This document shows, one piece after another, positions 556 to 45,754 of a DNA stretch of 64,000 bases (position 1 is the stretch's first letter; each line of letters starts with the position of its first letter). A program made the position numbers and the translations under genes. The stretch covers positions 30,417-94,416 of IMG/VR virus record IMGVR_UViG_3300034072_002212; one strand, 5' to 3'. Below the pieces are notes generated by a model. The model made no database searches. It saw only the letters and a list, made by a program, of their open reading frames with translations, and was not told where the DNA came from. This DNA is from a virus (lineage: Duplodnaviria > Heunggongvirae > Uroviricota > Caudoviricetes).

Positions 556-673
556 TGTGGGATCTCCTGTTGGTGTTAACTTTATTACTCTACTTATATG
601 ACCCCAAGAACTCAATATTCTGGTTGACGTCGTGTGACACTCTCGTTACGGAATTGCCCTGAAAGGAGAACCT

Positions 674-18372: not shown

Positions 18373-18912
18373 TTAGCCGTAATAAACAGCCGAGTTCGCA
18401 CCATGCTCAAAGCACTCAACAGACACGAGGCGCACGTCTGGGTTCACATTGTAGCGACCCAGCTTGCCGGCCTTCATCTCTTCCAGCATCTCGACGCTCT
18501 TCTCGTAAACGAGCTTCGCGGTCAGCTCACAGCCAACGCCGGGAACGATGCGGAGATTACAGACGCGGCCTTCCTCATAGAGACCAACTTCCTTCTCAGT
18601 GGGCACGCCATTGAGTTCTGGGTTCAGCGAGAACGCTGCTAGGGTCTTGAAGGTTTCGAGTGCGGGATCATCCTCGGCCACCAGGATCGTGTGGTCGAAC
18701 ATATGGTCGAGGAAGTTCTTGATGGGCTTCATACCACCAAAGTCAAAGCACCAGTTCTTCTCGTCCAGAGTCTCAGACTCCCAGACAAACTTGAAACCCA
18801 GGCTATAGCCGTGGAGCGTTGAACAGTGCGAGTGATTGGCCTTCCACTGACGGAAGCAGCAAGAGAGACCACGGTCGGTGCCGTAGGTCTTGGTCGATTG
18901 GAATTTAGGCAT
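18373..18912 (-). CDS. queD: 6-pyruvoyl-tetrahydropterin synthase / QueD-family protein
   Basis: FRQWKANHSHCSTLHGYSLGF and DFGGMKPIKNFLDHMFDHTIL parallel the QueD zinc and catalytic motifs (AAHRL..C..LHGHS; DFAELK...LDHHYL). Confidence 0.6.
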   Translation of the reverse strand: MPKFQSTKTYGTDRGLSCCFRQWKANHSHCSTLHGYSLGFKFVWESETLDEKNWCFDFGGMKPIKNFLDHMFDHTILVAEDDPALETFKTLAAFSLNPELNGVPTEKEVGLYEEGRVCNLRIVPGVGCELTAKLVYEKSVEMLEEMKAGKLGRYNVNPDVRLVSVECFEHGANSAVYYG

Positions 18913-20581: not shown

Positions 20582-20865
20582 GCAAAGGTCAGCTTGAACA
20601 GAGCCGCAAGGTCTGCGCGATCCTTGGGAAAGAAGAACGTTGTGATGTCCGGCTCGTCTGAACTGTTGCTCGACAACACAGTGAGACCGTGGCGCTTGTA
20701 GAAGTCCTCAATCTCGGGACCTGCGACCCACTGGAAAGTGTCCTCCCCAGTGGATCGCTTCGTGAAGTGCGCCTTGCCCTTGATGTCTACACCCATGGAC
20801 TCAGCTTGCTTCTGTTTGATGCTCTCCCAGAGAGCTTCATAGGCCGAATGGCGAGGATCGGTCAT
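20578..20865 (-). CDS. FKLTWGG-family small protein
   Basis: W-box DTFQWVAGP. C-terminus FFPKDRADLAALFKLTFA. ATG overlaps the cca stop (TAATG). Confidence 0.5.
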   Translation of the reverse strand: MTDPRHSAYEALWESIKQKQAESMGVDIKGKAHFTKRSTGEDTFQWVAGPEIEDFYKRHGLTVLSSNSSDEPDITTFFFPKDRADLAALFKLTFA

Positions 20866-21998
20866 TACTCGATCTCCAGCAGTTCTTCCTTGGTCTTCGT
20901 GAAGCGCGAGAACACCCAGGCATTCTCCAGCTTACGCAGACGCTGCCCCATAGCCGGCCCCGGCTTCATCCCCGAAGCCAGCAGGTCCTTCCCCGTTACC
21001 GGGAACGTCGGGACCACAAAGTTGCGGGCGTATTCAGCCAGCATCGGTTCCCCGGCGATCTCCAGCATGGACACGACATGATCCAGAGGGAACTTGTCGC
21101 GGGTCAGGTAGATCTCGACCTTCTCCTCGGTCCAGTTCACGCACCGGTTGCGGATCAGGTTGCGGACCTTGGCCTCTTCGGCCGAGCTCAGCTTCCAGAA
21201 CTGGAAGAACTTTTCCTCGTCGGTACTGGCCACCAGCGTCGACAGTGCCGCGACCGCATCATCCGAACGCGCCAGCTCAACAGGGTTGAACCGGAAGACT
21301 CCCAGCGAACGGTTGACGCGCGTCTTGAACATCGCGTCGACCACCCGAACCCGAGCCGGCATCGAGGGATCCAGCAGCTTTGACATTTCCAGCCAGAACC
21401 GCTCGACCGACACGACGTTCAGCTTGTCCAGGGTCTCGCCCACGCTGAACAGGTCCAGCGTGTCGTCGTCCATGGTCGCATCGAAGCGCGCCGCAAAGCG
21501 GAAGTAGCGCAGGATACGCAGGTAGTCCTCCTGGATTCGCAGCTCTGCGATCCCGACGAAACGGACGACCTTGTTCTTCAGGTCATCGCGTCCGCCAAAG
21601 TAATCGTAGACGTTGCCCTCGAAGTCCATCGACATTGCGTTGATGGTCAGGTCGCGCCGCTCTGCGTCCAGCTCGAAGGAGCGGGTGAACTCCACGGTCG
21701 CATGACGCCCGTCGGTCTCTGCGTCGATCCGCAGCGTGGTGACCTCGAACGGCTCCTTGTTGACCACGATGGTCGCCGTGCCGTGTGCGATGCCGGTTTC
21801 GATGAAGCCGAACTTGTTGGCCGTTGCGATCTCGCGCATCTCTTCCGGCGTTGCGTCGGTGCAGAAGTCCACGTCCTTGGGGACCACGCCCAGGATCGCG
21901 TCACGGACACAGCCACCCACGAAGCGGATCTCGAAGCCGGCGGCCTTGAAGGCATCGCCCAGCTTGCGCGTTTCCGTGGTCATCAGCTTGTCCAGCAC
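20865..21998 (-). CDS. cca: tRNA nucleotidyltransferase (CCA-adding enzyme) / poly(A) polymerase family
   Basis: Head-domain motifs GGCVRDAILG...DVDF and 377 aa length. Confidence 0.8.
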   Translation of the reverse strand: MLDKLMTTETRKLGDAFKAAGFEIRFVGGCVRDAILGVVPKDVDFCTDATPEEMREIATANKFGFIETGIAHGTATIVVNKEPFEVTTLRIDAETDGRHATVEFTRSFELDAERRDLTINAMSMDFEGNVYDYFGGRDDLKNKVVRFVGIAELRIQEDYLRILRYFRFAARFDATMDDDTLDLFSVGETLDKLNVVSVERFWLEMSKLLDPSMPARVRVVDAMFKTRVNRSLGVFRFNPVELARSDDAVAALSTLVASTDEEKFFQFWKLSSAEEAKVRNLIRNRCVNWTEEKVEIYLTRDKFPLDHVVSMLEIAGEPMLAEYARNFVVPTFPVTGKDLLASGMKPGPAMGQRLRKLENAWVFSRFTKTKEELLEIE

Positions 21999-27613: not shown

Positions 27614-28057
27614 TTAGGGGATCGCCAGACGCAGAAACATCGCCCGTTTGGGCGCCTTGGAAAGCGGTTCGTCAATCATAGTGCCAATCTGCTCCAGCAG
27701 ACCAGGAATGCCTTCCATGAGACTAGGTTGCTTGCTCAGAAGATCCATAGCGTTTTGGCGAAGATCAAACCAGTAGTTGGCACCTGGCTTGCTATATTCA
27801 CCTGGGCCGACTTTCAGGGCATCAACATACGCCACGAAGTAGAACACCATCTTCTCTTGCTTGTGAAGCAAGCAAAGGTCTTTGAGCGTCTGGCCCAAGC
27901 GAGTGCAGCTACGGGTTAGTCTTCCCCGTTCATAGGGAGTGACCTGATTACAGTCCACGAATTCATTTTGCGTGGCATCTTTATGACTGCGGGAGACGTT
28001 GCGGACCACCCGTAGATGCTTGATCACATCCTTGTAGAGGTCCGCTACATCGCTCAC
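27614..28057 (-). CDS. Hypothetical protein (147 aa)
   Basis: ORF only. Confidence 0.45.
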   Translation of the reverse strand: MSDVADLYKDVIKHLRVVRNVSRSHKDATQNEFVDCNQVTPYERGRLTRSCTRLGQTLKDLCLLHKQEKMVFYFVAYVDALKVGPGEYSKPGANYWFDLRQNAMDLLSKQPSLMEGIPGLLEQIGTMIDEPLSKAPKRAMFLRLAIP

Positions 28058-28620
28058 GCGGTGGGCAACCCGTCCGGGCCGATGCCGATGATCTCACCGC
28101 CCACAAACTTGACCCGGCCTAGCTTGTCCGTGCCAGCTTGTGCCCAGCGCATCCACCAGATGTCCTCACGAACTTGCGTGACAATTTCACCTAGCCAGTT
28201 GGTGCCCTGCCAGGTGTTGCGGTCCTGGGCCAGGGGATCGTTGGACGCGAGGCCAATACCCCAGATCTTGTCCCACGGGCTTGCTTCGACCAGCGTGGTG
28301 CCTCGGGTACCCATCAGCCATTTCATCGCCTCGTGGTTCTGCGTGAACTTGGCAAAGTTGGCGCGGTAGACATACACCTTGGCATTGGCTTCCCAGATCG
28401 CCTTGTCGAAGTTCTGAACCGTGCGACCGGCGGCTTTCTGAATCTTGGGATTGTCGGTCCCCATGATGATTGCCAGCGCGGCCTGGTCGTCGAACAGGAT
28501 AGCCTTCTGAGCCATCATATACTGCTCGGCGCAGTTATACTTCACCCCGTCGAGAATGAACTCGCTGGGAGCCCACTGGCTTGCCCAGCCGCCATAGAAG
28601 AACGTGAACTGCTCAGCCAT
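28054..28620 (-). CDS. NADAR domain protein (YbiA-like, DUF1768)
   Basis: FFYGGWASQW...AEQYMMAQKA...FAKFTQNHEAMKWLMGTRGTTLVEASPWDKIWGIG aligns along the length of E. coli YbiA (FYS...SEHYFQAQKF...LVEHTENDAYWGDG). Confidence 0.7.
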   Translation of the reverse strand: MAEQFTFFYGGWASQWAPSEFILDGVKYNCAEQYMMAQKAILFDDQAALAIIMGTDNPKIQKAAGRTVQNFDKAIWEANAKVYVYRANFAKFTQNHEAMKWLMGTRGTTLVEASPWDKIWGIGLASNDPLAQDRNTWQGTNWLGEIVTQVREDIWWMRWAQAGTDKLGRVKFVGGEIIGIGPDGLPTA

Positions 28621-29095
28621 TGGGGCACCATCCCTTGCGCGCGCCGCCCACGTAGGGTCGTGCGTAGCTTTGCATGATCAGGTCCTGCGCGAGGTTCCGA
28701 CCGTTGACGTAGACGTCTGCGTCCACGCGCCCGCCATACTTGTCCCATTTGAGATTGGTCAGGGTGACCTTGTTACCAGCCAGCCTGATCATGCGGGTTG
28801 TGTAGAGCTTGGCACCGGCAGCGTTGCGCTTCTCGAACTCGCACTTGCCGCGCATCTCAGGGGTGTCCACTCCACGCACCCGAACGCCAATGCGGCTCAA
28901 CTCGGGCGGCAGGCCATCCATGCGGATGTAGAAGGTGTCTCCATCATAGATATCCACTACATCGTAGGTATAGGAACGAGAAGTCTGGGCTTGTGCCTCA
29001 TAGTGGCAAGCCCCGAGGCTTAGGGCCGCTGCGGCCAGGAGAGTGGATAGAATCTTCATGTCCATATCGCTATAGGATAGGTGACCGGTTGTCAA
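28613..29095 (-). CDS. Secreted staphylococcal-nuclease (thermonuclease) family lipoprotein
   Basis: Lipobox LSLGAC. DGDTFYI...VRVRGVDTPE...DKYGGRVDADVYVNGRNLAQDL matches SNase catalytic motifs. Confidence 0.7.
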   Translation of the reverse strand: MTTGHLSYSDMDMKILSTLLAAAALSLGACHYEAQAQTSRSYTYDVVDIYDGDTFYIRMDGLPPELSRIGVRVRGVDTPEMRGKCEFEKRNAAGAKLYTTRMIRLAGNKVTLTNLKWDKYGGRVDADVYVNGRNLAQDLIMQSYARPYVGGARKGWCPNG

Positions 29096-29137: not shown

Positions 29138-30343
29138 TTAGCGAGCTGCCAGCTGAGCCTGCCGGTTGGCTGCGCTGAGCAGCGTTTCCTTGAGCTTCTG
29201 CTCGGCGCCCTGGAGCGCCACTTCGGCCGCAGCGCGCTTGGCCTTGCCCTGCTCCGCGAGGTCGATGCTCTCGTTGATCGTCGAGATCAGGTATTCGTTG
29301 GCCTCGACCGCCGCCTCGACGTCGAAGATACCACGCTCCATTTCCGTCCGGGTGATCCGGTTGGTCTCGTTGATCTGCTTCGCGCTGGCGACCAGCAGTT
29401 CGTTGGTGAAGTCGGTCGCGGCCTTGCTGGCCTTGCCGGCTTCCGCCGCGCGCCATGCGGCGATCTGAACCGCCATCGTGCGCTTCCAGAGGGGAACGGC
29501 CGTCAGGATCTGCGTCTGGATCTTCTCGGCCATGCCCTTGTCGTTGGCCTGGACGATGCGGATGCTGGGCAGCGCCTGGATGGTCACGTTGCGGGTCAGC
29601 AGCAGGTCAGCGCGCTTGCGCTCCAGCGAATCGCGCGCTTCGATCATGTCGCGCACTTCCTGGGTGTCGGCCATGTCCTGCGTCTCGTTGGCCTTTGCCT
29701 GGAGCCGCGGGATCTCGACGGTGTTGACCTCGTTGAGCAGCCACTCGACCGCCGCGATCTGCTCGTCGAGCGAATCCAGCAGGCCCAGCGTGGCCTCGTA
29801 TTGCTTGTCCAGCGCAACGATGTCCTTGAGCATCTGAACGCGATGACCCTCGAGCACGTTGGTCGACTTGATGATCTGCGCTTCGACCGTCTGATACTTG
29901 TCCAGGAACTTCTGGAGAACCGACGCGCCGCCGAACAGCTTCTTCAGGAAGCCAGGCTTCTTGCCCGCTGCCAGCTCACCAAAGTCCAGACCCTTCATGT
30001 CGCGCACCATCAGATTCAGCGCATCGCCGGCCGGACCCGTGTCCTTGGTGCGGACTCCCTGAAGCATCTGCTCCGAGACCTGAGTGGTCGCCTTCTGAGC
30101 TTCGACGCCGAAGGTGATGATCGACTGGCTGTCCTTGAGGTTGATCTTGCTGGCGAGCTCCTTGGCGCGCTCCGGCGAGATCTTGCGCGGCGCGCGTCCG
30201 GCGGCATTGTTGAGCGAGACGATTTCCTGCGAGCCGATCTCCGGCACGATCAGGGCATTGTCCGCCTGTGGGGTCGGGAGGAGTTCGCCGGTCAGAGACG
30301 GGGTTGCCGTCGCCGTGCCGACCTTGGTAGGATCAGTCGCCAT
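29138..30343 (-). CDS. TelA-like (toxic anion resistance / KlaB family) protein
   Basis: 401 aa, helical throughout, with a TelA-like organisation. An XpaC-like gene is adjacent, as in the Bacillus yaaN–xpaC operon. Confidence 0.55.
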   Translation of the reverse strand: MATDPTKVGTATATPSLTGELLPTPQADNALIVPEIGSQEIVSLNNAAGRAPRKISPERAKELASKINLKDSQSIITFGVEAQKATTQVSEQMLQGVRTKDTGPAGDALNLMVRDMKGLDFGELAAGKKPGFLKKLFGGASVLQKFLDKYQTVEAQIIKSTNVLEGHRVQMLKDIVALDKQYEATLGLLDSLDEQIAAVEWLLNEVNTVEIPRLQAKANETQDMADTQEVRDMIEARDSLERKRADLLLTRNVTIQALPSIRIVQANDKGMAEKIQTQILTAVPLWKRTMAVQIAAWRAAEAGKASKAATDFTNELLVASAKQINETNRITRTEMERGIFDVEAAVEANEYLISTINESIDLAEQGKAKRAAAEVALQGAEQKLKETLLSAANRQAQLAAR

Positions 30344-30348
30344 AGTGT

Positions 30349-31008
30349 TCAGATTCCCTCGTTCTGGAGACGGTTGTTCATGACCGTCATGTTCACGTCA
30401 AAATCCATGACGTCGTTGGACAGAAGCTTGTCGAGCAGCTTCTGAAAGTTGATCTCGATGGTGTCGAGCATTTCGTCGAACTTGGCCATCTGCTTCTGCG
30501 CCTCGAGGCTGCGCGAACCAGTGCGGCTCAAATGCGCGTAACCCTTGACCAGCGTGATAGTCTCGTCCAGGTAGCTGTTGAGCCAGCTCTGTGCAAGGAC
30601 CACGTCCTTGGGGTCGACGTGGAAGTCTTCGATGATCTTGCGACCGATGGCATCAATGTGCTTGATGCGCCGAACCGTGTTGGGGCTCTTGATCTGGGCG
30701 GCTTCCATGAGGATGCGGTCCAGCTTGTCGCTGCCCATCTTGATTGCTTCGACGACCAGCTTGGTGTCAACACCCGAGGTGCCGGCCGCGATGTCGTCGA
30801 TATGCTTGTGAAGAGCGCGGATGTCGTCAGCCGTTACGGGCTTGCGACCAGGCCAGAAATACCAGATGCCCGATCCTGTGAGTAGCGCCAGCGGCGCGCT
30901 GATCAGGATATCACCGATGAAGCCCGTGGGCAGAGCGGCCATGCCGCCGATGAAAACACAAGCGGCTCCTCCCAGCGCAGCCGCCTTACTCACTAGACTA
31001 TTTGCCAT
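30349..31008 (-). CDS. XpaC-like membrane protein (tentative)
   Basis: N-terminal TM segments followed by a helical cytoplasmic domain. Positioned next to TelA as in the Bacillus yaaN–xpaC pair. Confidence 0.35.
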   Translation of the reverse strand: MANSLVSKAAALGGAACVFIGGMAALPTGFIGDILISAPLALLTGSGIWYFWPGRKPVTADDIRALHKHIDDIAAGTSGVDTKLVVEAIKMGSDKLDRILMEAAQIKSPNTVRRIKHIDAIGRKIIEDFHVDPKDVVLAQSWLNSYLDETITLVKGYAHLSRTGSRSLEAQKQMAKFDEMLDTIEINFQKLLDKLLSNDVMDFDVNMTVMNNRLQNEGI

Positions 31009-31129
31009 TGCTACCTCGTTGTTACAGAGCTCTGTATAGTCCTAATTGGACATCTGTCTACCACTCATTTGTTCAGAAAGGAAGGGCCACGGTTTCCCGC
31101 AGCCCTTCCCCTACGAAGCCCAGTGAGGG

Positions 31130-32869
31130 TTATTCAGCGTCGGGATGAATCCCTGCCAGCCGCTGAAGTTCCTCACGCTCGTCGGCCGGGAGAGGCTCGT
31201 CGCGCACCCGGCGGGGCTTGGGGGCCGGAACCGCCTTGGCCACCGGCGCATCACCGTTGCCGGTGATCGGAGCCGAAAGACCATCGACCACACCCGACAT
31301 GCCCTTGCTCAGGTCAATGCCAAGTTCCTTGGCCAGCTCGTCCACGAAGGGAGCCTGGAGCCGGTAGCCCAGCAGAGCGTCAGTCATCTGGCCGGGCAGA
31401 CCGTTACCGCCGTTTCCCGAGGTCTCGCCCTCCTCACCGCCGAAGGTGCGACCGCCACCGATGCCGCCGTTCATGTGAACAACGCGGAAGCTGTCAATCT
31501 TCTCGATGGGCTTGCCCATCTGCTCGAGGATCTCAGGCAGCTTGTCGATGAGCTTGAGGCGGATCTGCAGCGCAGCCTGCTCAGGGCTCATGAGGTTCGC
31601 AGCTTCGTTCAGCGCCCGCTGACCCTCGGCCTCAACCTCGTAACGACGTGCGTCTGCCTCGACTAGGCGCTCCTTGGCCTTGGCGCTGGCGTCAGCTGCC
31701 GCGAGCTCAGCTTCCGCACGGATGCGGATACCAGCGGCCTCTTCCTGTGCCTTGGTCTCGGCCGCGATGACCGCAACCTTCTGGTCACGCTGGGCGCGCG
31801 CTTCGGCCTCAACGGTCTTCACCGCTTCAGCAGCCGCGACCGCAGTCGCGCGGGCTTCGTCAGCCTTGGCACGAGCAGTCGACTCTTCCTCGGACTTCTG
31901 GGCGACCGCAATGCGCGATGCCTGTGCCGCAATCTCGAGAGCCTGTGCGGCCTCGGTCTCTGCGACCTGAATCCGGCGCTTCTGCTCGACACGCGCTGCC
32001 TCGGTGGCCTGGTTGGCCTCGATTTCAGCGATGTCAGCTTCGCGAGTGCGCTCAGCGCGGATCTTCGCAAGACTAGCAGCCTGCTCGGCGCGCTGGGTCT
32101 CGACCTGACGCTCCTGCTCCAGGGTTGCGAATTCGTCCTGCTGCTTGATTTCGAGCGAACGCTTGTTCGCCTCGAAGTTCTTCTGCTCGATGGCGACGCG
32201 GTTGTCGGCCTCGATTTCGTTGCGCTCCTTGCGGCGGGTCTCGGTCACGCTCGTGAGCTTAGCCAGACCTTCAGCGTCGAACGCATTGTTGGGGTTGAAG
32301 TGCTCGACCGACGTCTGGTCCAGACCGGTCAGCGAGACCGATTCCAGTTCCAGACCGTTCTTCTTCAGGTCTTCAGCCGCTGTGGTCTGGACCTGCTTCA
32401 CGAAGTCGGCCCGCTTCTCATGAAGGTCCTGCATGTCCATGCCCGCCGCAACAGCGCGCAGAACGTCGACGAACTTGCCTTCAATCAGCTCAGCGAGCTG
32501 CTGGGGGTTGGTCGTCCGCTTACCCAGGGTCTGCGCCGCTGCCGCGATGCTTTCCAGATCCGGCGACACACGAACGTAGAACTCAGCCTTCACGTCAACG
32601 CGCAGGCGGTCCTTGGTGATCAGCGAGTCCTTGGCCTTGCGATCGACGGTGAGGCGCAGGGTCTGCATATTGATGTCCACAGTCTCGTGGAACACCGGCA
32701 GAATCAGAGCACCGCCGTCCTTGACGACCTTCTGACCGCCCATACCCGTGCGGACGAATGCCATTTCCTTGGACGCTCGCTTATAAAGCTGCGTCATGAA
32801 GAAGACAATCACACCAAGGACGACAACCGCCCCCAGGATGATCGCCCCAATAAAGGTGAGATTATCCAA
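31130..32869 (-). CDS. Flotillin / band-7 (SPFH) protein, YqiK-like
   Basis: N-terminal TM, SPFH core (ILPVFHETVDINMQTLRLTVD...) and a very long A/E/K/R coiled coil. 579 aa. Confidence 0.75.
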   Translation of the reverse strand: MDNLTFIGAIILGAVVVLGVIVFFMTQLYKRASKEMAFVRTGMGGQKVVKDGGALILPVFHETVDINMQTLRLTVDRKAKDSLITKDRLRVDVKAEFYVRVSPDLESIAAAAQTLGKRTTNPQQLAELIEGKFVDVLRAVAAGMDMQDLHEKRADFVKQVQTTAAEDLKKNGLELESVSLTGLDQTSVEHFNPNNAFDAEGLAKLTSVTETRRKERNEIEADNRVAIEQKNFEANKRSLEIKQQDEFATLEQERQVETQRAEQAASLAKIRAERTREADIAEIEANQATEAARVEQKRRIQVAETEAAQALEIAAQASRIAVAQKSEEESTARAKADEARATAVAAAEAVKTVEAEARAQRDQKVAVIAAETKAQEEAAGIRIRAEAELAAADASAKAKERLVEADARRYEVEAEGQRALNEAANLMSPEQAALQIRLKLIDKLPEILEQMGKPIEKIDSFRVVHMNGGIGGGRTFGGEEGETSGNGGNGLPGQMTDALLGYRLQAPFVDELAKELGIDLSKGMSGVVDGLSAPITGNGDAPVAKAVPAPKPRRVRDEPLPADEREELQRLAGIHPDAE

Positions 32870-32891
32870 CTACTTTCTCCTGGTGATCTGT

Positions 32892-33551
32892 TTAGATCTT
32901 GCGAACGATGAATGCGTAAGCGCGTTCTCGGTGTGGACCGATTAGCACCACCTGTGAACCATTTGCAATACTTTCTTCTCCCTCCCCACAAACCATTACT
33001 GTGTGATCGGTTCCATGCGCGTCAGTAAAGCGCGCCATGCCAAAGTCCTCGCGGGCAATTGGACCAACAGTCACAACGCCGGCAGAACCCGTGAGACTCT
33101 CGAGGCTAACGGCATTCGACTCATCCTTGGGAAGGACGGGAGCGAGCCCCAGAGAACACAAACGAACGGTTGGAAGGGTGAGAGCGAGCACGATGGGCGC
33201 ACCAAAGAGCGCAGGCGCTAGGGAGCCCGTCAGTCCATCATAGATCCACTGAGCACTGTAGCCCAGGAGAGCAAAGCTGCCGCAGAATAGCGTGAGGAAG
33301 ATTGTGCTGGGCACATGGCCGGGATTGGCCCAACCGATGATACCAGCATGGCCGATTTCCAGATGATCTGGAATGCCGTTGCCGTTGAGGTCTAGGCTAA
33401 AATCAGCATGGCCATGGAGGGCATCAAAGCCAGCGCCCAGCGCCATTCCAATGATGCCGAAGAGGAGAAGGGCGAGAACCACACATCCTGAAATTAGGTA
33501 TGGGAGGTTGGGCCCGGCTGTAAGGAAATCCATGAGGCTCATAAGCCCCAC
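32892..33551 (-). CDS. NfeD/YqiJ-like membrane protein, partner of the flotillin gene
   Basis: Multiple TM helices plus a C-terminal OB-fold-like segment (GSAGVVTVGPIAR...ARFTDAHGTDHTVMV...GSQVVLIG). Lies immediately upstream of the flotillin gene. Confidence 0.55.
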   Translation of the reverse strand: MGLMSLMDFLTAGPNLPYLISGCVVLALLLFGIIGMALGAGFDALHGHADFSLDLNGNGIPDHLEIGHAGIIGWANPGHVPSTIFLTLFCGSFALLGYSAQWIYDGLTGSLAPALFGAPIVLALTLPTVRLCSLGLAPVLPKDESNAVSLESLTGSAGVVTVGPIAREDFGMARFTDAHGTDHTVMVCGEGEESIANGSQVVLIGPHRERAYAFIVRKI

Positions 33552-33588
33552 ATACAGGACTAGGAAGCCCTATGTCAAATGTATTGGA

Positions 33589-33891
33589 TCACTTTTCCTT
33601 GGGCTTTGATGCGTCTGCCAAACGAGCAAGGACCTGACCGTGGCAAGGAGCAGGGTGGCACCAGCAACCGAGGCGCTTTCCCTTGAGTTCGTGTAATGCT
33701 TCCATAAGGTGCTTTTGGTCCACGATCCATTCGGCAAATTGCTGAATGCATTCCTCGCGGGTGCCATCTTTACCAACTACGAAAGGATTGCCCCACTTGG
33801 TCTTGCGGTCAATACGAACGTCGTAGTGATCCTCTTTGAGGTTCACCACAGTGGTTCCAGGTGGGGGCCAGTGGAATAGATCGTCTGCCAT
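33589..33891 (-). CDS. Small Cys-rich protein (DUF4326-like, tentative)
   Basis: GNPF...LGCWCHPAPCHGQVL motif. The longer track ORF (to 34023) runs into the tRNA; an internal ATG at 33891 is proposed. Confidence 0.35.
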   Translation of the reverse strand: MADDLFHWPPPGTTVVNLKEDHYDVRIDRKTKWGNPFVVGKDGTREECIQQFAEWIVDQKHLMEALHELKGKRLGCWCHPAPCHGQVLARLADASKPKEK

Positions 33892-34103
33892 CGATCTACT
33901 TATCGGGCAGAACTTGCGGATGGGGGCTAGGCAGCTTGCGACCAATCCTAGCCCCCTACGTCCTGCAAAGAGGGGTAAGCACGACGCCTTCCACCGTTGT
34001 AAAGAACAATACGACGAAAGCAAGAGCTTTTGCGATGAGTTGTACTTTCACGTAGCCCCAGAACTCATGGAAACGGGTGGCAATCGGCCACCCGTTCGTC
34101 CTA

Positions 34104-34178
34104 TGGTGCTGTTGGGGAGGATTGAACTCCCGACTTCCTCATTACCAATGAGGTACTCTACCACTGAGTTACAACAGC
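34104..34178 (-). tRNA. tRNA-Thr (anticodon GGU), 75 nt with encoded CCA
   Basis: Folded by hand: acceptor GCTGTTG/CAACAGC, D-arm ACTC-AGTGGTA-GAGT, anticodon arm CCTCA-TTGGTAA-TGAGG, T-arm GGGAG-TTCAATC-CTCCC, discriminator A, CCA. Confidence 0.75.
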
Positions 34179-34194
34179 ATTGTGTTGTGCTCTC

Positions 34195-34222
34195 TGTATA
34201 GCACCAACACGCCTATTTATCA
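34195..34222 (-). promoter_or_regulatory. Sigma70-like promoter TTGATA-N16-TATACA upstream of tRNA-Thr
   Basis: -10 at 34200-34195 and -35 at 34222-34217 on the minus strand. Predicted start about 10 nt before the tRNA 5' end. Confidence 0.4.
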
Positions 34223-34582
34223 AAATAGATATACCATCTTTTTCAAATGGTCCTGCGCTTCCTGAGGGCGGTAGGGCTTCATGAGAACCTCCCAACCCGC
34301 ATAGCAATCATGAAGGGCATTGGAATCACTGCCTGAGCAAACGACTACATGGATGCCCATACCACGAAGCTTTTCAGCTACCGGCTGGCTAGTCCCGTCG
34401 TGAAGGTTCACGTCGAGGATCACCCCGGTGAGATTGGAACCATGCTTGTCGATAATCTCCAGGGCCTCACCGCTTGTCATTGCTATCCCTGCTATCTCGA
34501 TGTCAGCGAGGGCGCAAATGTCTTCCCATAGGAAGTGAAGCATCGGCTCGTCTTCTACGAGCAGGATTAGACCTTTGGTCAT
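34220..34582 (-). CDS. Single-domain response regulator (CheY-like receiver)
   Basis: LILLVEDEP...GVILDVNLHDG...KPY: the acidic pocket, phospho-acceptor Asp and conserved Lys are in their expected positions. Confidence 0.7.
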   Translation of the reverse strand: MTKGLILLVEDEPMLHFLWEDICALADIEIAGIAMTSGEALEIIDKHGSNLTGVILDVNLHDGTSQPVAEKLRGMGIHVVVCSGSDSNALHDCYAGWEVLMKPYRPQEAQDHLKKMVYLF

Positions 34583-34596
34583 ACTGGCCTCCGTGC

Positions 34597-35127
34597 TTAG
34601 AACGCGGCCAGTTTTGCAAGCATCACCTGATCGACAGTCCCCTTGTCGAGGATCATCGCGCTGGAGGGCTTACCAACACGAACCATTGCGTTCTTGATTT
34701 CATGGTTGCCCAAACCGCTCTTGAACAGTCGAGCGTAAATGGTGCCCTTGTCCGAGATCTTGCGAACAGTGCCCATGACCATGTCCACACGGGCGCCGTC
34801 AGTGCCACGGGGGAACAAAATCGTATGGCCGACCTCAATCGTGCGACCCATCAGGTCGTGATAGGCCGGAGTGGTCTTGTCCTCTGCGAAATGAGTACCG
34901 CCATGCCAGTCCACAAGATGCTCCAAATTCGAGCCCTTGACCCAAAAAGGACGTTTGCCCTTGACTGCGAGCTGGTATTCGTGGGCGCTGAAATACTTGG
35001 AGTTAACCTGCATTACGCGACCCACCGTGCCAGCACGGGGTCCAGTCGTTACGCGAACAAACTGTGGACCTTCTTCCATGGACTTCAGAAGACTCATAGC
35101 AGCATAATGGTTATTCAGGCTCATCAA
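34597..35127 (-). CDS. Hypothetical protein (176 aa)
   Basis: ORF only. Confidence 0.45.
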   Translation of the reverse strand: MMSLNNHYAAMSLLKSMEEGPQFVRVTTGPRAGTVGRVMQVNSKYFSAHEYQLAVKGKRPFWVKGSNLEHLVDWHGGTHFAEDKTTPAYHDLMGRTIEVGHTILFPRGTDGARVDMVMGTVRKISDKGTIYARLFKSGLGNHEIKNAMVRVGKPSSAMILDKGTVDQVMLAKLAAF

Positions 35128-35418
35128 ACGCTAACCCTTACAACTTTGGTTCGATCTTGCTGCTACGAGGCTCAGGAGGTCCTTAGTTCCCACCCCACAA
35201 AAATTAAGCACATTGTGCAACTAAACAGCGCGCTAGTGCGTTGTTTGCTGCCCATACAAGCTATGATAAAGCGCGCTGCCAGTCTAGCGGATAGTCAGGT
35301 GTCACCTGTAAAAATTACTGACATACGCACTTTTGAGACTTGACGTCCTCGCAAGTCACAGAAAAGCGCGGGCCTCGACACATAAGACCCGCGCTTACTC
35401 TGTGGATAACTCTGTGAA

Positions 35419-35607
35419 TTATCCTACGAGTTCTTCGTCAAATTGGAGACGGAAACGAAAGGCATCGTCAATGCTCAGAAAGTCAACCTGCACGGCATCA
35501 TTCGTGGGAATCAACACATAACCCTTGGTCGCTTCCTCGTCGAGCCAAGCTTCGACCTTTTCCTTCGACTCGGGTGCGACACGCAGAATCCAAGAACTTG
35601 CGACCAT
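35419..35607 (-). CDS. Possible short FKLTWGG-family member (62 aa)
   Basis: C-terminus LSIDDAFRFRLQFDEE resembles the family signature. Short, so low confidence. Confidence 0.3.
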   Translation of the reverse strand: MVASSWILRVAPESKEKVEAWLDEEATKGYVLIPTNDAVQVDFLSIDDAFRFRLQFDEELVG

Positions 35608-35676
35608 TACTCTTACCTCAACTGTCTTGCTAGGACCTGATTATTAACTGTTTAACCAGCTAGGAATCAATATGTT

Positions 35677-37428
35677 CTAGCCATTCTTGGATGCGAGTTC
35701 GTTCACAACCATGTGATTGAGGTCAGAGATCCTGTAGGGCTTGCCTAGCACCTTGATCTTATGACTGCGGTCTCGCTTGAGCTCCCTAAGGGCCACTTCA
35801 GCATGACCTGTGGTGAAGATCACGGGTAAATCCGGACGGATATTGCTGGCAGCTTTGGCAAGCTGGAAACCATCAATGCCATTGGGCATCACAACGTCGG
35901 TGAACAATAGGTCAATGGGAATGTCGAGATTCTGAATGATCTCCAGTGCGCTTTTGCCATCTTGTGCGCTCAGGACATTGTAGCCCATTTCCATCAAAGC
36001 CTGCGCTGCGAGCTCTCTGACGCCGGGCTCGTCATCTACCACAAGAATGCTGGCCTTGGTAGCGTCGTAGTTGAAGTCTTCCTCGTCCCGCGTTTCTTCG
36101 ACCGTTTCTCCGGCTGTGTAGGGGAAGAGCATCTCTACGGTTGTTCCCTTGCCCAACACGCTGTCAATGAAGACCTTGCCGTTGCTCTGCTGACAGAAGC
36201 CATAGACCATGGAGAGACCAAGCCCACTACCCTTGCCCACGTCCTTGGTCGTGTAGAATGGTTCAAAGGCCCGTTCTTTGGTTTCCTGAGTCATGCCTTC
36301 GCCAGTATCACTGACGCTGACACTCACAAAGCGCGTGTCGTCAATGGAACGGTTTTGTGTCTTAATACAGATCCGACCACCATTGGGCATTGCGTCTCTG
36401 GCGTTGATGCCAAGGTTGAGAATAGCACTCTCGAGCTGTGATTTGTCGCTCAAGCAAAGCCAGACGTCTTCCTGGAGATCAATCTCAACAGGAATACTAA
36501 CACCGACCGCCCGCTGGACCATTTCCTGGACGCCAACGACGACCTCGTTGACGTTCAGTCGCTCGGGATGGAGTCGCGATTTACGAGAGAACGCAAGCAA
36601 TTGGCTCGTGAGCTTTTCTGCCTTGAGGGCGGCCTCGATCGCCATGGAAGTCTGACGTTCAATACGCTTTGCCACGGAGTTGTCTGGCAAGTTGGCCAGA
36701 CTCATCTTCGAGAGCTCGAGGTTCCCGATGATCACTGTGAGCATGTTGTTGAAATCGTGCGCGATACCACCGGTCAACTGCCCAACGCTCTCCATCTTTT
36801 GTGCCTGGCGGAGAGCATCCTGTGTTTTCTGCCGCTCTTCAATCTCTTGAAGGAGGCGCTCATTTGCTTCCTCGAGCTCTTGAGTGCGTTCGCGGACTTT
36901 GGTCTCTAGCAGTTCGTGAGCGTGGATAGATTCTTCCTGAGCCATTTTGAGCTCATGAATTATTGAAGCAACACCCAGCCATTTTACGAGGTTTTCGTTA
37001 TCATCCTTGATGGCTCGAGTGGTTGCACGGAACCAGCGATATTCTCCGTCATGTCGACGAATGCGAAACTCGGCTTCGTATGCTAACCCCTTGACATAAT
37101 GCTCTTCCATTGCCAGACGAATTACTGCTATATCGTCGGGATGAATGCATGTCTTCCAAAGATAATCATCATCAAGGGAGTATTTTACTCCCGTGAATTC
37201 AAACCAAAAATTATTGAGATAGGTGAGATTTCCCTGATCGTCTCGGGTCCAGATAATTGTCGGCGCAAGATCTGTGAGCATCTTGATATTGATGTCAGAT
37301 TTGATCGCCTTATCCACAAAACCCTCATCGCCCACTCCGCAGACAAGAAGACCTTGGGGTAATGGCCTACCTCCGGTCTGTCGCTTTGGCATCGAGAACC
37401 CCTTTAGAAGCGTAACGAATAGAACCAA
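35677..37428 (-). CDS. Hybrid sensor histidine kinase (PAS – HisKA – HATPase – receiver)
   Basis: H-box IAHDFNNMLTVI; ATPase DTGEGM...GSGLGLSMV; C-terminal receiver ILVVDDEP...DLLFTDVVMP. Uses a TAG stop. Confidence 0.8.
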   Translation of the reverse strand: MVLFVTLLKGFSMPKRQTGGRPLPQGLLVCGVGDEGFVDKAIKSDINIKMLTDLAPTIIWTRDDQGNLTYLNNFWFEFTGVKYSLDDDYLWKTCIHPDDIAVIRLAMEEHYVKGLAYEAEFRIRRHDGEYRWFRATTRAIKDDNENLVKWLGVASIIHELKMAQEESIHAHELLETKVRERTQELEEANERLLQEIEERQKTQDALRQAQKMESVGQLTGGIAHDFNNMLTVIIGNLELSKMSLANLPDNSVAKRIERQTSMAIEAALKAEKLTSQLLAFSRKSRLHPERLNVNEVVVGVQEMVQRAVGVSIPVEIDLQEDVWLCLSDKSQLESAILNLGINARDAMPNGGRICIKTQNRSIDDTRFVSVSVSDTGEGMTQETKERAFEPFYTTKDVGKGSGLGLSMVYGFCQQSNGKVFIDSVLGKGTTVEMLFPYTAGETVEETRDEEDFNYDATKASILVVDDEPGVRELAAQALMEMGYNVLSAQDGKSALEIIQNLDIPIDLLFTDVVMPNGIDGFQLAKAASNIRPDLPVIFTTGHAEVALRELKRDRSHKIKVLGKPYRISDLNHMVVNELASKNG

Positions 37429-37564
37429 ACTGATCCTGTGTCACGCACAAAGTAGGCTTTCTCGAGATATCTATCGCGGGATTGGCGCTTCCCTATTAAT
37501 CCATCATTATCGCACTATACGACACGAGACCTTAACCGCGTATTGCGGTAAGGTTTTGATTCTG

Positions 37565-37768
37565 TAAAGAAAGCTAAAAGGCCCGTCCTGTTCCGCGGTG
37601 GAGCCCATACCGGTTTGGCAAACCCTAAGGGTTAAGCCGCAACTGCCATTGCTGGCTCGTTGTCGTTGACATTTCTGTCGTTGGCCTTTTCGGATCCGAA
37701 GATCCCAGGGAACCACCCCTCGTTGTCTCTCGCAGCCGTTCGCGCACACGTCGATCCTGGTTCGGCCC
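37565..37768 (-). ncRNA. ssrA: tmRNA coding piece (5' acceptor strand, tag reading frame, post-stop helix)
   Basis: 5' end GGGGCCGAACCAGGAUCGACG at 37768. Resume codon GCC at 37684-37682. Tag stop UAA at 37633-37631, followed by the AACCC-UUA-GGGUU hairpin. Confidence 0.6.
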
Positions 37769-37815
37769 CTTGCTTCAGGATTGCTCCCGATAAGGTTTCC
37801 AGTATTGCCACCTGG

Positions 37816-37880
37816 TTGGTGGAGCCGGCGGGTACTGCCCCCGCGTCCGCTGATTGCTATTGAGCTTTGGTCATCAACAA
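37816..37880 (-). ncRNA. ssrA: tmRNA acceptor piece (T-arm + 3' acceptor strand + CCA)
   Basis: The 3' end ...GCGGG-GGCAGUA-CCCGC-CGGCUCC-A-CCA lies at 37816. The last 12 nt (CCGGCUCCACCA) match the E. coli tmRNA 3' terminus. Confidence 0.6.
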
Positions 37881-37887
37881 CCCCGCC

Positions 37888-37916
37888 TTTATAGCGCGCT
37901 CGTAACCAAATGTCAA
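37888..37916 (-). promoter_or_regulatory. Sigma70-like promoter TTGACA-N17-TATAAA(GG) driving the tmRNA locus
   Basis: -35 at 37916-37911 and -10 at 37893-37888 on the minus strand, immediately after the PAAR stop codon. Confidence 0.5.
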
Positions 37917-37919
37917 CAG

Positions 37920-38195
37920 CTATCCTACAAAAACGTCGCTGCTGCCTTGTGCAACCTTGCTACCACAGGCCACGGGGTCAGATAACCTGCCCTGTCCGCG
38001 TCCATTGACGAAGACTGTGGATGATCCCCTAGCCAAAACACTTGGATGACCACTATGTGGTGCCCATTTATCGCCTTGCCTGTGAGCCGGCTTGCCGTTG
38101 ATAAAGACGTCAGGGCTTCCCTGAACGTTTGGACGTGGAGGAGCGCCGGGATGGCCCGTGCATTTGTCTCCCATACGGGCCGCTGGCTTACCCAC
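37920..38195 (-). CDS. PAAR-repeat protein (spike-tip, T4 gp5.4-like)
   Basis: N-terminus (M)GKPAARMGDKC...HPG...VFINGKPAHRQGD...VFVNG are PAAR repeats. GTG start overlaps the upstream stop. Confidence 0.75.
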   Translation of the reverse strand: MGKPAARMGDKCTGHPGAPPRPNVQGSPDVFINGKPAHRQGDKWAPHSGHPSVLARGSSTVFVNGRGQGRLSDPVACGSKVAQGSSDVFVG

Positions 38196-39042
38196 CTAGC
38201 ACCGCCGCCGCAGCACCAGTTGCCACGCTACCTAGGAGACCACGCAGGCAAGGATCCTGTGGCAGATTAGCCATTAGGTCAGCCAAACCCTGACGGATCT
38301 GTGCCAGCATTGCCTTGGCAAACTTCATGACTTCTTCTTTGGCCTTTGCGATCATCTGTGCGATCGCAGCTTTTGCCTGAGCAATGCCCGCCTTGATCTG
38401 GTCGATGATAGGGCCAATGGCTTCGTTGACCGCATTCTTAACCTGCGAGATCATATCAGAAATCTTGGCCCTGATCTGATTTAGCAAAGCTTTTCCAGAA
38501 TCCATGATGCTGCCAAGGAAGCCATCCAGACCAAGGCAGGGATTGCTGAGCAAGTTCATCACCGTAGCGAGCGCCATTGCTCCCTGGGCGATACCTGCTA
38601 GGCTTGGTAGGTTGTTGGTCAGGCGATCCGTGTGATCTTCAATCTGATCCAGATCTTCGTTGATGTCCTGACAGTCAGCATCGAACTCAGGCTTATAGGC
38701 CGCCCAAGTGCCATTGTCGCTGAAACGACCAATGAGGTAGATGCTGAAGTCCTGAAGATCTGTGCGAATCGGAGAGATCAAACATTCAGTGGGATTGACA
38801 ATCACTCCCTGGTAAGGATTGAACAGGGAGAGATTATTGAAAGAGTCAACGTGGGCCTGAAGGCTGACGTCAACTTCCCCTGGAGTCACAAGCGGAGGAC
38901 GACGCGGAGTGGTCCTCGTGTCCACAATGGGCGTGCTCTCCATAATCTCCTGGAGCATCAAGACCTTGGGATCCAGAGGTGGATTGTAGAGGCTGCTCTC
39001 TAGCGCCTCGGTGTTCACCAGCTTCGACATGGATTGCATCAC
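38188..39042 (-). CDS. Hypothetical virion-associated protein (284 aa)
   Basis: ORF directly upstream of PAAR. Helical A/I/Q-rich C-terminal half. Confidence 0.45.
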   Translation of the reverse strand: MMQSMSKLVNTEALESSLYNPPLDPKVLMLQEIMESTPIVDTRTTPRRPPLVTPGEVDVSLQAHVDSFNNLSLFNPYQGVIVNPTECLISPIRTDLQDFSIYLIGRFSDNGTWAAYKPEFDADCQDINEDLDQIEDHTDRLTNNLPSLAGIAQGAMALATVMNLLSNPCLGLDGFLGSIMDSGKALLNQIRAKISDMISQVKNAVNEAIGPIIDQIKAGIAQAKAAIAQMIAKAKEEVMKFAKAMLAQIRQGLADLMANLPQDPCLRGLLGSVATGAAAAVLGG

Positions 39043-44623: not shown

Positions 44624-45262
44624 TCAGACTGAGGGGTTGGACCATTCACGTCCAGAGACGCTGAGGATAAACTCAGAACCGGCTGGGACGTCATTGAGGA
44701 ATGACAACCACGTTACACCGCTATCCAAGCCTTCATTGTCGAAACGAGTTAGCTTGAACTTGCCTGGACGAGAAGCATCACCGACGATGGTATCGAGGTA
44801 ATCCCTAGTCTCAGACCAACCCATAACGCTATGAGTCTTAACGGTTACAATACTCTGATCGGGATCAGTGGGATGAACACAAACCGACAGAGTACCAACA
44901 ACCTTAGTGGAACGGTTGTTCGCTGATAGCGCGAAATCATAAGTAGCAAAATCGCGCGAACTATGAGCGAAGAGAGGCACCACAGAAGACCACACACCAT
45001 TGCGTGGACAGCGTGCGCCCACAAGTGCACCATGGTAATAGACGTCACCCTTAATACCGCGCTGAACATCTAGTTCAGTGAGAATCTTGATGTTCTGATA
45101 GGGATAGGACTTACGGCCTGAAACCGCTGGATGATCCGATGCGCCGATGAAGACCTCACCGGTATCAGTCGTCATACCAATCTCGCCGTCAGCGAGTGCG
45201 TCAGGAAGCTCACCGCTAGTGCCCCTGCGATGCTGAATCCTGGAGATTTGATATACCGCCAT
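44624..45262 (-). CDS. Hypothetical protein (~212 aa)
   Basis: Track ORF begins with TTG at 45274. The ATG at 45262 follows GGAGGGCAGA and a CTAAATATAGG motif (45282-45290). Confidence 0.45.
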   Translation of the reverse strand: MAVYQISRIQHRRGTSGELPDALADGEIGMTTDTGEVFIGASDHPAVSGRKSYPYQNIKILTELDVQRGIKGDVYYHGALVGARCPRNGVWSSVVPLFAHSSRDFATYDFALSANNRSTKVVGTLSVCVHPTDPDQSIVTVKTHSVMGWSETRDYLDTIVGDASRPGKFKLTRFDNEGLDSGVTWLSFLNDVPAGSEFILSVSGREWSNPSV

Positions 45263-45281
45263 TCTGCCCTCCAAATTACCC

Positions 45282-45334: not shown

Positions 45335-45754
45335 ATGAGCGAGATCGAAGTTCCTCCGCGCGGCACGCGGGTAGAAGTCCTGACCCGTTATTCCCTCGAG
45401 TGGATGAACCAGTATCGGCGTCCAACCGTTGGTATTGTGGCCCACAGCAACCCCTGGGACAAACCAGGCACGTTCCGCCTAATTGGCGTCGACAACTGCT
45501 TGGGCGAGAGCGTCATCAACCTTGAGAACGTTGAATACCTCAAGGTTCTTGGCACTTCCAATGAGCCCAACAACCCAGAAGCCGCCAATATCCCAGATCC
45601 CAAGAAGGCCGAAACCTTCGAGATCAAGGGCAGCAAGGACAACGTCTATATCGTCACACTCGACGGAGATAAGTCGTCCTGTACCTGCCCCGCCGGCACC
45701 CATGGGCGCCAGTGTAAGCACGTCAAAGCTGCTCGGGAGATGCAGGCTTCGTGA
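45335..45754 (+). CDS. SWIM zinc-finger protein
   Basis: C-terminal CTCPAGTHGRQCKHV fits the SWIM CxC...CxH pattern. Confidence 0.45.
   Translation: MSEIEVPPRGTRVEVLTRYSLEWMNQYRRPTVGIVAHSNPWDKPGTFRLIGVDNCLGESVINLENVEYLKVLGTSNEPNNPEAANIPDPKKAETFEIKGSKDNVYIVTLDGDKSSCTCPAGTHGRQCKHVKAAREMQAS

Follow-up and report, generated by a model that had tools for sequence, protein, structure and literature searches.

Gene content of the locus

A 64-kb stretch of viral DNA (IMG/VR record IMGVR_UViG_3300034072_002212, positions 30,417 to 94,416, hereafter the window) encoded a two-component signalling locus made of a hybrid histidine kinase and a stand-alone receiver of 120 amino acids (REC120), separated by two open reading frames (ORFs), orf62 and orf176. 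All four genes lay on the minus strand in the same orientation (Table 1). The cassette was bracketed by two RNA genes, a permuted transfer-messenger RNA (tmRNA) on the kinase side and a tRNA-Thr on the receiver side, both missing from a preliminary description of this DNA. That description had placed the kinase and the receiver on either side of one hypothetical gene; the 120-residue receiver stood, whereas two ORFs were found between the proteins, which lay in separate transcription units and did not appear as a dedicated pair. The protein families involved are known; what is new is a hub-type receiver fixed in a clade of huge phages, with a dispensable and recombining sensor kinase beside a tmRNA.

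The window covers 64 kb of a genome of about 468 kb, and searches for histidine phosphotransfer (HPt) proteins and output domains were run on the window. A kinase protein of identical sequence was recorded on a contig of 468,011 bp, and related loci were found on contigs of 435-481 kb. Phage genes of the window, assigned with Pfam and PHROGs, included a split topoisomerase II, both ribonucleotide reductase (RNR) subunits, a DnaB-like helicase, a primase and an exonuclease; an HNH endonuclease, a virion structural protein and a PAAR spike tip were also encoded. The nearest cultured phages were Sinorhizobium phage Phosso (469 kb; helicase 69% identical, virion protein 37%) and Agrobacterium phage Atu_ph07 (490 kb), both of which infect Alphaproteobacteria. 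As judged from these genes, the window comes from a phage of about 470 kb of the Atu_ph07/Phosso lineage. An alphaproteobacterial host is likely, because the nearest isolates infect Alphaproteobacteria and the clade and Phosso both carry a conserved alpha-type tmRNA.

The hybrid histidine kinase

The PAS-HisKA-HATPase-REC architecture described earlier for a protein of 583 amino acids was borne out by Pfam, with matches to PAS_3 (E-value 1e-16), HATPase_c (2.5e-19) and Response_reg (5.5e-19), and a match to HisKA of 26.9 bits, equal to the cut-off. The 583 residues correspond to the maximal ORF; translation probably starts at an ATG at position 37392 with AAGGGG in front of it, which would give a protein of 571 amino acids, the same length as orthologues P0003 and P0004.

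Residue H224 lay within an H-box (GGIAHDFNNML) that aligned to the H-box of CckA, in a segment (Q208 to L230) almost wholly invariant across 28 phage orthologues. The N, G1, F and G2 boxes (N338/N342, D374xG376xG378, F391 and G398-K-G400xG402-L-G404) were invariant or nearly so in these 28 kinases, as were D465/D466, D511, T540 and K563-P564 of the receiver domain. Loss of the conserved His or Asp, raised earlier as a sign of a pseudo-kinase, was not seen: both residues were present, invariant or nearly so, in the 28 kinases, the phospho-acceptor Asp was invariant in 32 orthologues of the stand-alone receiver, and a pseudo-kinase is ruled out at the sequence level.

A hydropathy scan of the kinase displayed no hydrophobic segment (no 19-residue window above 1.26). 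Since no such segment occurred in the kinase, orf62, orf176, REC120 or PAS556 (a four-PAS protein encoded elsewhere in the window), all five proteins are predicted to be cytoplasmic. The closest solved structure to the kinase core was Caulobacter CckA (5idj, E-value 7e-36), those closest to its receiver domain were hybrid-kinase Rec domains (28tm and 6tne), and the best solved relatives of its PAS domain were uncharacterised sensory-box domains. Strand beta4 of the kinase receiver carried the FATGUY-like sequence P-V-I-F-T-T-G-H. The sensor region differed by lineage, with a single PAS domain in the window, PAS-PAS in locus L009 and GAF-PAS in L011 and others.

The kinase is one member of a very large family found in Proteobacteria, which counts more than 8000 relatives. 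The best matches in bacterial genomes were 37-49% identical and were spread across Alpha-, Beta- and Gammaproteobacteria, and no relative above 49% identity was found among genomes of 185,579 species. The ratio of non-synonymous to synonymous substitution rates (dN/dS) was 0.04 in the least saturated pairs and spanned 0.04-0.15 for the kinase overall. Recent acquisition from a host, which the preliminary description had put forward for comparison, is not supported, given the distance of the best bacterial relatives together with phage copies that are saturated at synonymous sites and under purifying selection.

Among phage protein families, the kinase matched phrog_5982 (PHROGs, E-value 4.7e-114). 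Kinase matches in 50,697 GenBank phage records were all at or below 30% identity, many of them on mislabelled bacterial records and one in the Microcystis jumbo phage MaAM05 (sasA), and tblastn of REC120 returned no relative in the same records. Sensor-kinase genes are thus uncommon in cultured phages, as had been proposed. IMG/VR contained 44 loci with kinase relatives, and six of these came from contigs measuring 250-500 kb. Huge viral contigs outside the clade also carried hybrid kinases of about 40% identity, namely L139/L007 (IMGVR_UViG_3300031088_000008, 416 kb, two copies) and L107/L005 (499 kb); no SdrG-like receiver was found within 10 kb of these kinases.

The stand-alone receiver

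REC120 matched Pfam Response_reg at 26.8 bits, under the cut-off of 30.2. A profile of its orthologues retrieved two solved structures well ahead of all others, SdrG (5ieb, E-value 1.2e-27, 99.8 bits) and Sma0114 (2lpm, 9.8e-27, 96.8 bits); the next match stood at 1.6e-14 (57 bits) and CheY at about 5e-10. The CheY-like label given to this protein in the preliminary description was therefore not retained, SdrG scoring about 100 bits against about 43 for CheY. SdrG was also the top Foldseek match of the REC120 model, at about 31% identity. In this AlphaFold model (predicted local distance difference test score 91), helix alpha4 was missing, and two 3-residue turns lay between beta4 and beta5.

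Across 32 REC120 orthologues, E10, D11, E12, D57, K102 and P103 were invariant and position 83 was S or T. The switch position (K102 minus 3) was non-aromatic in 30 of the 32 and aliphatic in 26 of the 32, being occupied by V, I, L, M, A or T, and by F in two. Conservation was concentrated at the phosphorylation-site face (1.00 for the beta1-alpha1 loop, 0.82 for the beta3-alpha3 loop and 0.77 for beta4), with values of 0.39-0.44 for alpha2, beta5 and alpha5. The clade consensus of beta4 was P-V-[VIL]-V-[SAC]-[TS]-G-[S/H/Y], and the window copy read H-V-V-V-C-S-G-S. The receiver was present in every member of the uncultured clade examined, with a dN/dS of 0.07 in the least saturated pairs.

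By these features REC120 is classified as a FATGUY-like Rec-only intermediary (the class of MrrA, SdrG, Sma0114 and CckA-Rec) and not as a CheY-type output protein: the switch residue is non-aromatic, alpha4 is missing, beta5 and alpha5 are poorly conserved, and che genes are absent from the window. The features reported for FATGUY Rec-only proteins (PMC9981736) match REC120 in the switch residue, the conservation of the active-site face and alpha4. A derivation of REC120 from the receiver domain of the kinase was considered and rejected; BLASTP detected no similarity between the two, and they would be separate in origin because this similarity is absent.

Intervening genes, RNA genes and transcription units

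No Pfam or PHROG match and no detectable family were found for orf62. Its orthologues occurred in all close relatives, kinase-bearing or not, with no clear one in the most divergent loci, L009 and L011. Where the kinase was present, orf62 shared its transcription unit; where it was absent, orf62 followed the tmRNA directly or after other small ORFs. Its dN/dS was 0.13 in the least saturated pairs.

The phage-restricted orf176 displayed only a sub-threshold KOW match in Pfam and weak matches to PHROG families of unknown function, and a PF23835 label carried by some of its orthologues was not reproduced. An exhaustive profile search retrieved 112 stand-alone proteins and no fusions. Its barrel folds are of a protein- or nucleic-acid-binding type. 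The stop codon of orf176 lay 14 bp before the receiver gene in the window and 8-16 bp before it in all loci, and its dN/dS was 0.03 in the least saturated pairs.

Two roles were considered for these small proteins. Neither fits the four-helix fold of a missing HPt, orf176 being made of two beta barrels and orf62 having no family, and scanning about 60 window ORFs with Pfam or PHROGs turned up no HPt, DNA-binding, GGDEF or other output domain. A role of orf176 as dedicated effector of the receiver is weakened by Phosso, which has orf176 and the flotillin/TelA block without the receiver.

A stem-loop with a U-run after orf62, a probable intrinsic terminator, was kept in 9 loci by compensatory changes and probably closes the kinase-orf62 unit. 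Because this hairpin is conserved and covarying, kinase and orf62 would form one transcription unit, and orf176 and the receiver another. A promoter/terminator consensus scan of positions 33500..38300 gave a hit count not above that of shuffled sequences; the terminator came only from alignment and folding. The orf62-orf176 spacer of about 290 bp (35130..35350, minus strand) contained short blocks conserved across nine loci, e.g., CTAGACT, AACGCAC, TTAGTTGCA and AGATCGA. These blocks had no Rfam match and may represent a phage promoter or operator of the orf176-receiver unit.

The tmRNA, of the alphaproteobacterial two-piece type, matched RF01849 over its full length and sat directly upstream of the kinase, in what had looked like an intergenic gap of 490 bp. 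Its tag frame ended in ...ANDRNVNDNEPAMAVAA (AMAVAA), with a stop at 37632. It was not called by ARAGORN. Eleven related loci carried a tmRNA at the corresponding place, as did Phosso (108 bits), and this tmRNA is a strong pointer to an alphaproteobacterial host. The tRNA-Thr, the only tRNA in the window, directly followed the receiver and occupied the same place in L008, L011, L093, L095, L142, L143 and L147.

Gain, loss and exchange of the kinase

The neighbourhood from RNR to flotillin was syntenic in nine independent kinase-bearing lineages, with the kinase at a variable spot downstream of the tmRNA. Five loci of the clade had no kinase (L140; L141, 436 kb; L142, 465 kb; L143, 462 kb; and L147) and kept orf62, orf176 and the receiver intact. 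A crude backbone tree (flotillin, orf176 and YqiJ) placed the kinase-less lineages at two points inside kinase-bearing ones, with kinase-bearing lineages at the base. Because of this nesting and of the kinase-bearing basal lineages, the tree suggests an ancestral kinase that was lost at least twice.

Recent exchange between lineages was also detected. A block of 2.35 kb made of the kinase, its upstream region, orf62 and the terminator was 99-100% identical between the window and L093, which belongs to another backbone lineage. In a sliding window, identity within the block was 0.97-1.00; it fell to 0.38-0.41 upstream and to 0.46-0.55 in the receiver, with orf176 in between at 0.73-0.84. The flanks of the block were 70-83% identical, and the receiver genes shared about 50% identity at the nucleotide level and 41% at the protein level. 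At the edge of the block (~37610), between tmRNA and kinase block, L093 encoded a SegE-like GIY-YIG homing endonuclease (8743..9360 of L093, minus strand). This endonuclease is a plausible driver of the block conversion, and the arrangement suggests that homing-associated co-conversion spreads the kinase. Alignment of the tmRNA-to-kinase spacer with the tmRNA-to-orf62 spacer of the kinase-less phages displayed no clean insertion borders.

As their distribution indicates, kinase and receiver are not an obligate pair. The locus is resolved by the same comparisons into three layers: a deep core also found in Phosso (orf176 together with the membrane-stress block YqiJ-flotillin-XpaC-TelA), a clade-wide set (receiver, tRNA and DUF4326), and the kinase as an accessory gene.

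Comparison with known systems

REC120 resembled MrrA, SdrG and Sma0114 (PMC5964349, PMC9981736; PDB 5ieb, 2lpm) as a Rec-only protein of about 120 residues, with SdrG and Sma0114 as its best solved-structure matches, a degenerate alpha4, a non-aromatic Y-T switch, conservation of the site face and a beta4 motif of similar shape (P-V-x-V-S-T-G-S versus P-F-x-F-A-T-G-G/Y). Unlike them, it is phage-encoded, shares only about 31% identity with SdrG and has no HWE/HisKA2 kinase beside it; the motif has other residues in place of both Phe and of the Ala, and in the window copy the Pro is lost as well.

The pairing of a HisKA hybrid kinase carrying a C-terminal receiver with a Rec-only FATGUY-type protein can be likened, by description, to CC2874 and MrrA of Caulobacter crescentus (PMC5964349). 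In that study CC2874, a HisKA hybrid kinase, phosphorylated MrrA without the use of its own Rec domain; MrrA was promiscuous, exchanging phosphate with many kinases, passing it to PhyK and LovK and feeding PhyK/LovK and PhyR. The phage genes differ from this pair in lying in separate transcription units and in the dispensable kinase. Among solved structures, the core of the phage kinase (GGIAHDFNN H-box and CA domain) and its receiver came closest to CckA; a FATGUY-like motif in that receiver and a likely alphaproteobacterial host range are further points in common with the CckA-ChpT-CtrA/CpdR relay (PDB 5idj, 5idm, 6tne). In contrast to CckA, it has no transmembrane anchor and a single PAS domain and is not an orthologue, and no ChpT-like or HPt gene was found in the window.

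Histidine kinases already recorded in viruses comprise phoR-type genes reported as auxiliary genes on soil viral contigs (PMC10987575), sasA of MaAM05 (MW495066) and the families phrog_5982, 857, 20458 and 10912. Intact ATP boxes and purifying selection are common to these and to the kinase described here. The former are isolated annotations without a partner, whereas the present kinase is accompanied by a clade-wide Rec-only partner, a defined insertion site, variable sensors and exchange between lineages. In the literature searched, neither reviews of jumbo and huge phages nor the genome papers on Atu_ph07 and AP-J-162 mentioned histidine kinases or response regulators.

The clade has genome size (about 470-490 kb) and replication and virion proteins in common with Phosso (PV764938), AP-J-162 (PMC11242549) and Atu_ph07 (PMC6102473). 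A tmRNA was reported in AP-J-162 (PMC11242549). Phosso further shares the block orf176-YqiJ-flotillin-XpaC-TelA and, downstream of PAAR, the alpha-type tmRNA; unlike the clade, it lacks the receiver, the kinase, orf62 and DUF4326 at this locus.

A putative phosphoryl carrier and its proposed coupling to host signalling

Bacterial two-component signalling is usually viewed as belonging to the host only, with phages disturbing it from outside through small inhibitors or borrowed transcription factors. The locus described here encodes two intact, soluble phosphotransfer proteins of alphaproteobacterial type under selection, a kinase and a Rec-only receiver, with the catalytic set intact across the orthologues of both and dN/dS values of 0.03-0.15 for the four genes. 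The hijacking of a host phosphorelay, one of the roles proposed in the preliminary description, was kept as the best reading, in the following form. REC120 would act as a passive phosphoryl carrier: histidine kinases would phosphorylate D57, which would then either donate the phosphate to DHp/HPt-like partners or draw phosphate off them. Some of these partners would be host proteins, because kinase-less phages keep REC120 intact; in Alphaproteobacteria they could be HWE, HisKA2 or HisKA kinases and phosphotransferases feeding PhyR-NepR-EcfG stress signalling and related circuits. Where present, the kinase would sense a cytoplasmic cue through its PAS domain (GAF-PAS or PAS-PAS in relatives), autophosphorylate on H224 and load REC120 directly, as CC2874 does with MrrA, and its D511 may also pass phosphate to a host HPt such as ChpT. 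The outcome would be phage control over the phosphorylation state of a host signalling hub in the course of a long infection. We hold this host-coupled model tentatively, at somewhat less than even confidence. A wider claim, that a phage-owned Rec-only hub exchanges phosphoryl groups with host stress and cell-cycle relays, with an optional and swappable kinase providing PAS/GAF input, and would so be the first case of a virus taking over bacterial His-Asp signalling through phosphate flow instead of transcription, is conceivable and rather doubtful.

Several points weigh against the host-coupled model. The host and every step of the phosphate flow are inferred, and the view is limited to 64 kb of about 468 kb, so that a phage HPt, an output regulator or a second kinase could be encoded elsewhere. 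The FATGUY motif PFxFATG[G/Y] is only approximated in REC120; the position and shape are the same, and T/S, G and, in most copies, P are retained, with aliphatic residues in place of both Phe. The same kinase allele (99%) occurs beside receivers 41% identical, which makes tight cognate pairing not evident, and kinase and receiver are in separate transcription units. Kinase-less calls came from pattern scans of the whole collection, which a divergent kinase could escape. Gene neighbourhoods in bacteria give little help: in a survey of 81 bacterial loci with kinase relatives, one was next to phyR/ecfG and one next to an SdrG-like receiver (L087). The arrangement with phyR, ecfG and an HWE/HisKA2 kinase had been noticed around the Xanthobacter homologue P0035; at 1/81 and 1/81, a link to general stress drawn from gene neighbourhood was rejected as a general property of the family. 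No HWE/HisKA2 kinase, PhyR, NepR or EcfG was found in the window.

Two other explanations also give the proteins a signalling role. The phage could own a self-contained circuit in which the kinase reads the condition of the infected cell and phosphorylates REC120, and phosphorylated REC120 binds a phage target, either orf176, translated just upstream, or another, to time development or lysis, with no part for host signalling. The four genes are adjacent and co-oriented in the nine independent kinase-bearing lineages and under purifying selection, the gap between orf176 and the receiver is 8-16 bp in all loci, and the barrels of orf176 are of a binding type. However, the region from RNR to TelA is syntenic throughout, so adjacency is weak evidence; an intact receiver in kinase-less relatives calls for another phosphodonor; Phosso has orf176 without a receiver, so orf176 is independent of REC120; and the output face of REC120 (alpha4-beta5-alpha5) is its least conserved part, with alpha4 missing. 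We consider such a circuit unlikely. Mimicry of the cell-cycle relay, with the kinase as a soluble CckA surrogate feeding ChpT-CtrA/CpdR and REC120 as a CpdR-like protein that primes ClpXP, possibly with the phage ClpX, depending on whether it is phosphorylated, draws on the proximity of the kinase core to CckA (5idj, E-value 7e-36) and of its receiver, with P-V-I-F-T-T-G-H, to 6tne. FATGUY-like motifs are present in CckA-Rec and CpdR, both of which engage ChpT (PMC9981736), the phage ClpX has an N-terminal zinc finger, the phage has a tmRNA, and phages of Alphaproteobacteria exploit CtrA (PMC9437464). Yet the kinase has neither the membrane anchor nor the two-PAS architecture of CckA and is about 40% identical to members of a very large hybrid-kinase family, and REC120 matches the SdrG/Sma0114 group, which PMC9981736 places in the MrrA profile and not with CpdR (CpdR was judged by that assignment). 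This mimicry is accordingly held to be quite improbable.

Two further explanations fare worse. REC120 could be a catalytic Rec-like enzyme of the cREC type, acting with DUF4326 and NADAR on cyclic phosphate or ADP-ribose derivatives, and the kinase unrelated cargo. DUF4326 does follow REC120 and the tRNA in the clade, NADAR and SNase genes are found a few kb further downstream, and divergent Rec domains are tied to NAD/ADP-ribose enzymes in up to 18% of jumbo phages (PMC7824862, PMC9503650). Still, REC120 is close to canonical receivers (E-value 1e-27 to SdrG) and has all five canonical phospho-site residues, K102-P103 included. Proteins of the cREC type are described as never associated with histidine kinases, whereas REC120 lies 2 kb from one; the tblastn search with REC120 found nothing in the 50,697 phage records, a set that should include the published cREC phages; and REC and DUF4326 are separated by inserted genes in L011. 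We regard an enzymatic role as very unlikely. That the genes are passenger DNA, or an assembly chimera, without a role in infection is hardly credible: the kinase does occupy a variable insertion spot, some relatives do without it and recombination moves it, and both families are abundant in Proteobacteria, but the same arrangement was found in more than 10 independent assemblies from different samples, synonymous sites are saturated with dN/dS of 0.03-0.15 and invariant catalytic residues, and bacterial relatives are all at or below 49% identity.

Returning to the host-coupled model, strong selection maintains a hub-type carrier in a lineage of huge phages that has acquired, lost and exchanged a sensor kinase more than once. 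Should this carrier communicate with host kinases, stress and cell-cycle decisions could be read or overridden by the phage while a long infection lasts, which would be a new layer of takeover, and the clade would offer a natural test bed for the evolution of specificity and promiscuity in Rec-only hubs. With cultured relatives (Phosso, AP-J-162 and Atu_ph07) and tractable hosts, the idea is directly testable. The kinase block moving beside a homing endonuclease displays how sensory modules spread among huge phages.

Table 1. Positions of the genes, domains and other elements discussed, in window numbering
Feature	Position	Strand	Details
tmRNA, alphaproteobacterial two-piece (permuted) type	37577..37920	-	Rfam RF01849 84.3 bits (gathering 50); RF04321 84.7 bits
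Soluble hybrid histidine kinase	35677..37428	-	Maximal ORF 583 aa; Pfam PAS_3, HisKA, HATPase_c, Response_reg
PAS domain of kinase	36967..37284	-	583-aa numbering
HisKA/DHp of kinase	36580..36783	-	H224 codon 36757..36759
HATPase_c of kinase	36118..36447	-	
Receiver domain of kinase	35710..36048	-	D511 codon 35896..35898
orf62, small conserved protein	35419..35607	-	Orthologues 45-62% identity
Stem-loop and U-run, probable intrinsic terminator	35358..35397	-	-33.4 kcal/mol, z -6.6 versus shuffles
orf176, phage-restricted protein	34597..35127	-	Two small KOW/Tudor/SH3-like beta barrels between terminal helices
REC120, Rec-only receiver of SdrG/Sma0114/MrrA (FATGUY-like) class	34220..34582	-	120 aa; D57 (phospho-acceptor) codon 34412..34414
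tRNA-Thr (anticodon GGT)	34104..34178	-	ARAGORN; Rfam 72 bits
Recombination block (kinase, upstream region, orf62, terminator)	~35260..37610		2.35 kb; 99-100% identical to L093, other backbone lineage
DUF4326	33589..34023	-	Near receiver
YqiJ	32892..33551	-	Membrane-stress block 29138..33551
Flotillin/SPFH	31130..32869	-	Membrane-stress block
XpaC-like, PF10112	30349..31008	-	Membrane-stress block
TelA	29138..30343	-	Membrane-stress block
SNase-like nuclease	28613..29095	-	Near receiver
NADAR	28054..28620	-	Near receiver
PAS556, soluble, four PAS domains	54370..56040	+	Pfam PAS_9, four stretches, E 6.9e-41; output domain absent
Ribosomal protein S21	292..615	-	
IF3	3756..4286	-	
ClpX (zinc finger)	4346..5602	-	
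S-adenosylmethionine decarboxylase-like	7246..7668	-	
L7/L12-like protein	16520..16975	-	
6-pyruvoyl-tetrahydropterin synthase (QueD-like)	18373..18912	-	
tRNA nucleotidyltransferase	20865..21998	-	
Mtd_N (N-terminal domain of major tropism determinant) ORF	44624..45274	-	
SWIM zinc-finger ORF	45335..45754	+	Adjoins Mtd_N ORF

Other genes of the window

The four-PAS protein of the preliminary description was recovered as PAS556, with four PAS stretches and no output domain. Its orthologues on IMG/VR contigs (L149-L152) were 66-74% identical and included one in the kinase-less 3300034072_000926; by this distribution, PAS556 is considered a core gene, independent of the kinase. The membrane-stress block downstream of the receiver was conserved in the clade and in Phosso. 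The cluster of DUF4326 (predicted ADP-ribose-phosphate processing), NADAR and SNase-like genes near the receiver may act in counter-defence on NAD/ADP-ribose signals.

Genes for translation and proteostasis (IF3, S21, an L7/L12-like protein, tRNA nucleotidyltransferase and ClpX) are typical of huge phages, and together with the tmRNA they provide this phage with a small toolkit for ribosome rescue and degradation. The S-adenosylmethionine decarboxylase-like and QueD-like genes point to possible auxiliary metabolism of polyamines and of a queuosine type. The Mtd_N ORF and the adjoining SWIM ORF could mark the target of a diversity-generating retroelement. In L009 (1190..4986), the gene coding for the RNR large subunit was split and contained an intein-like insertion with an extra ORF, with a NUMOD3-type endonuclease ORF nearby.

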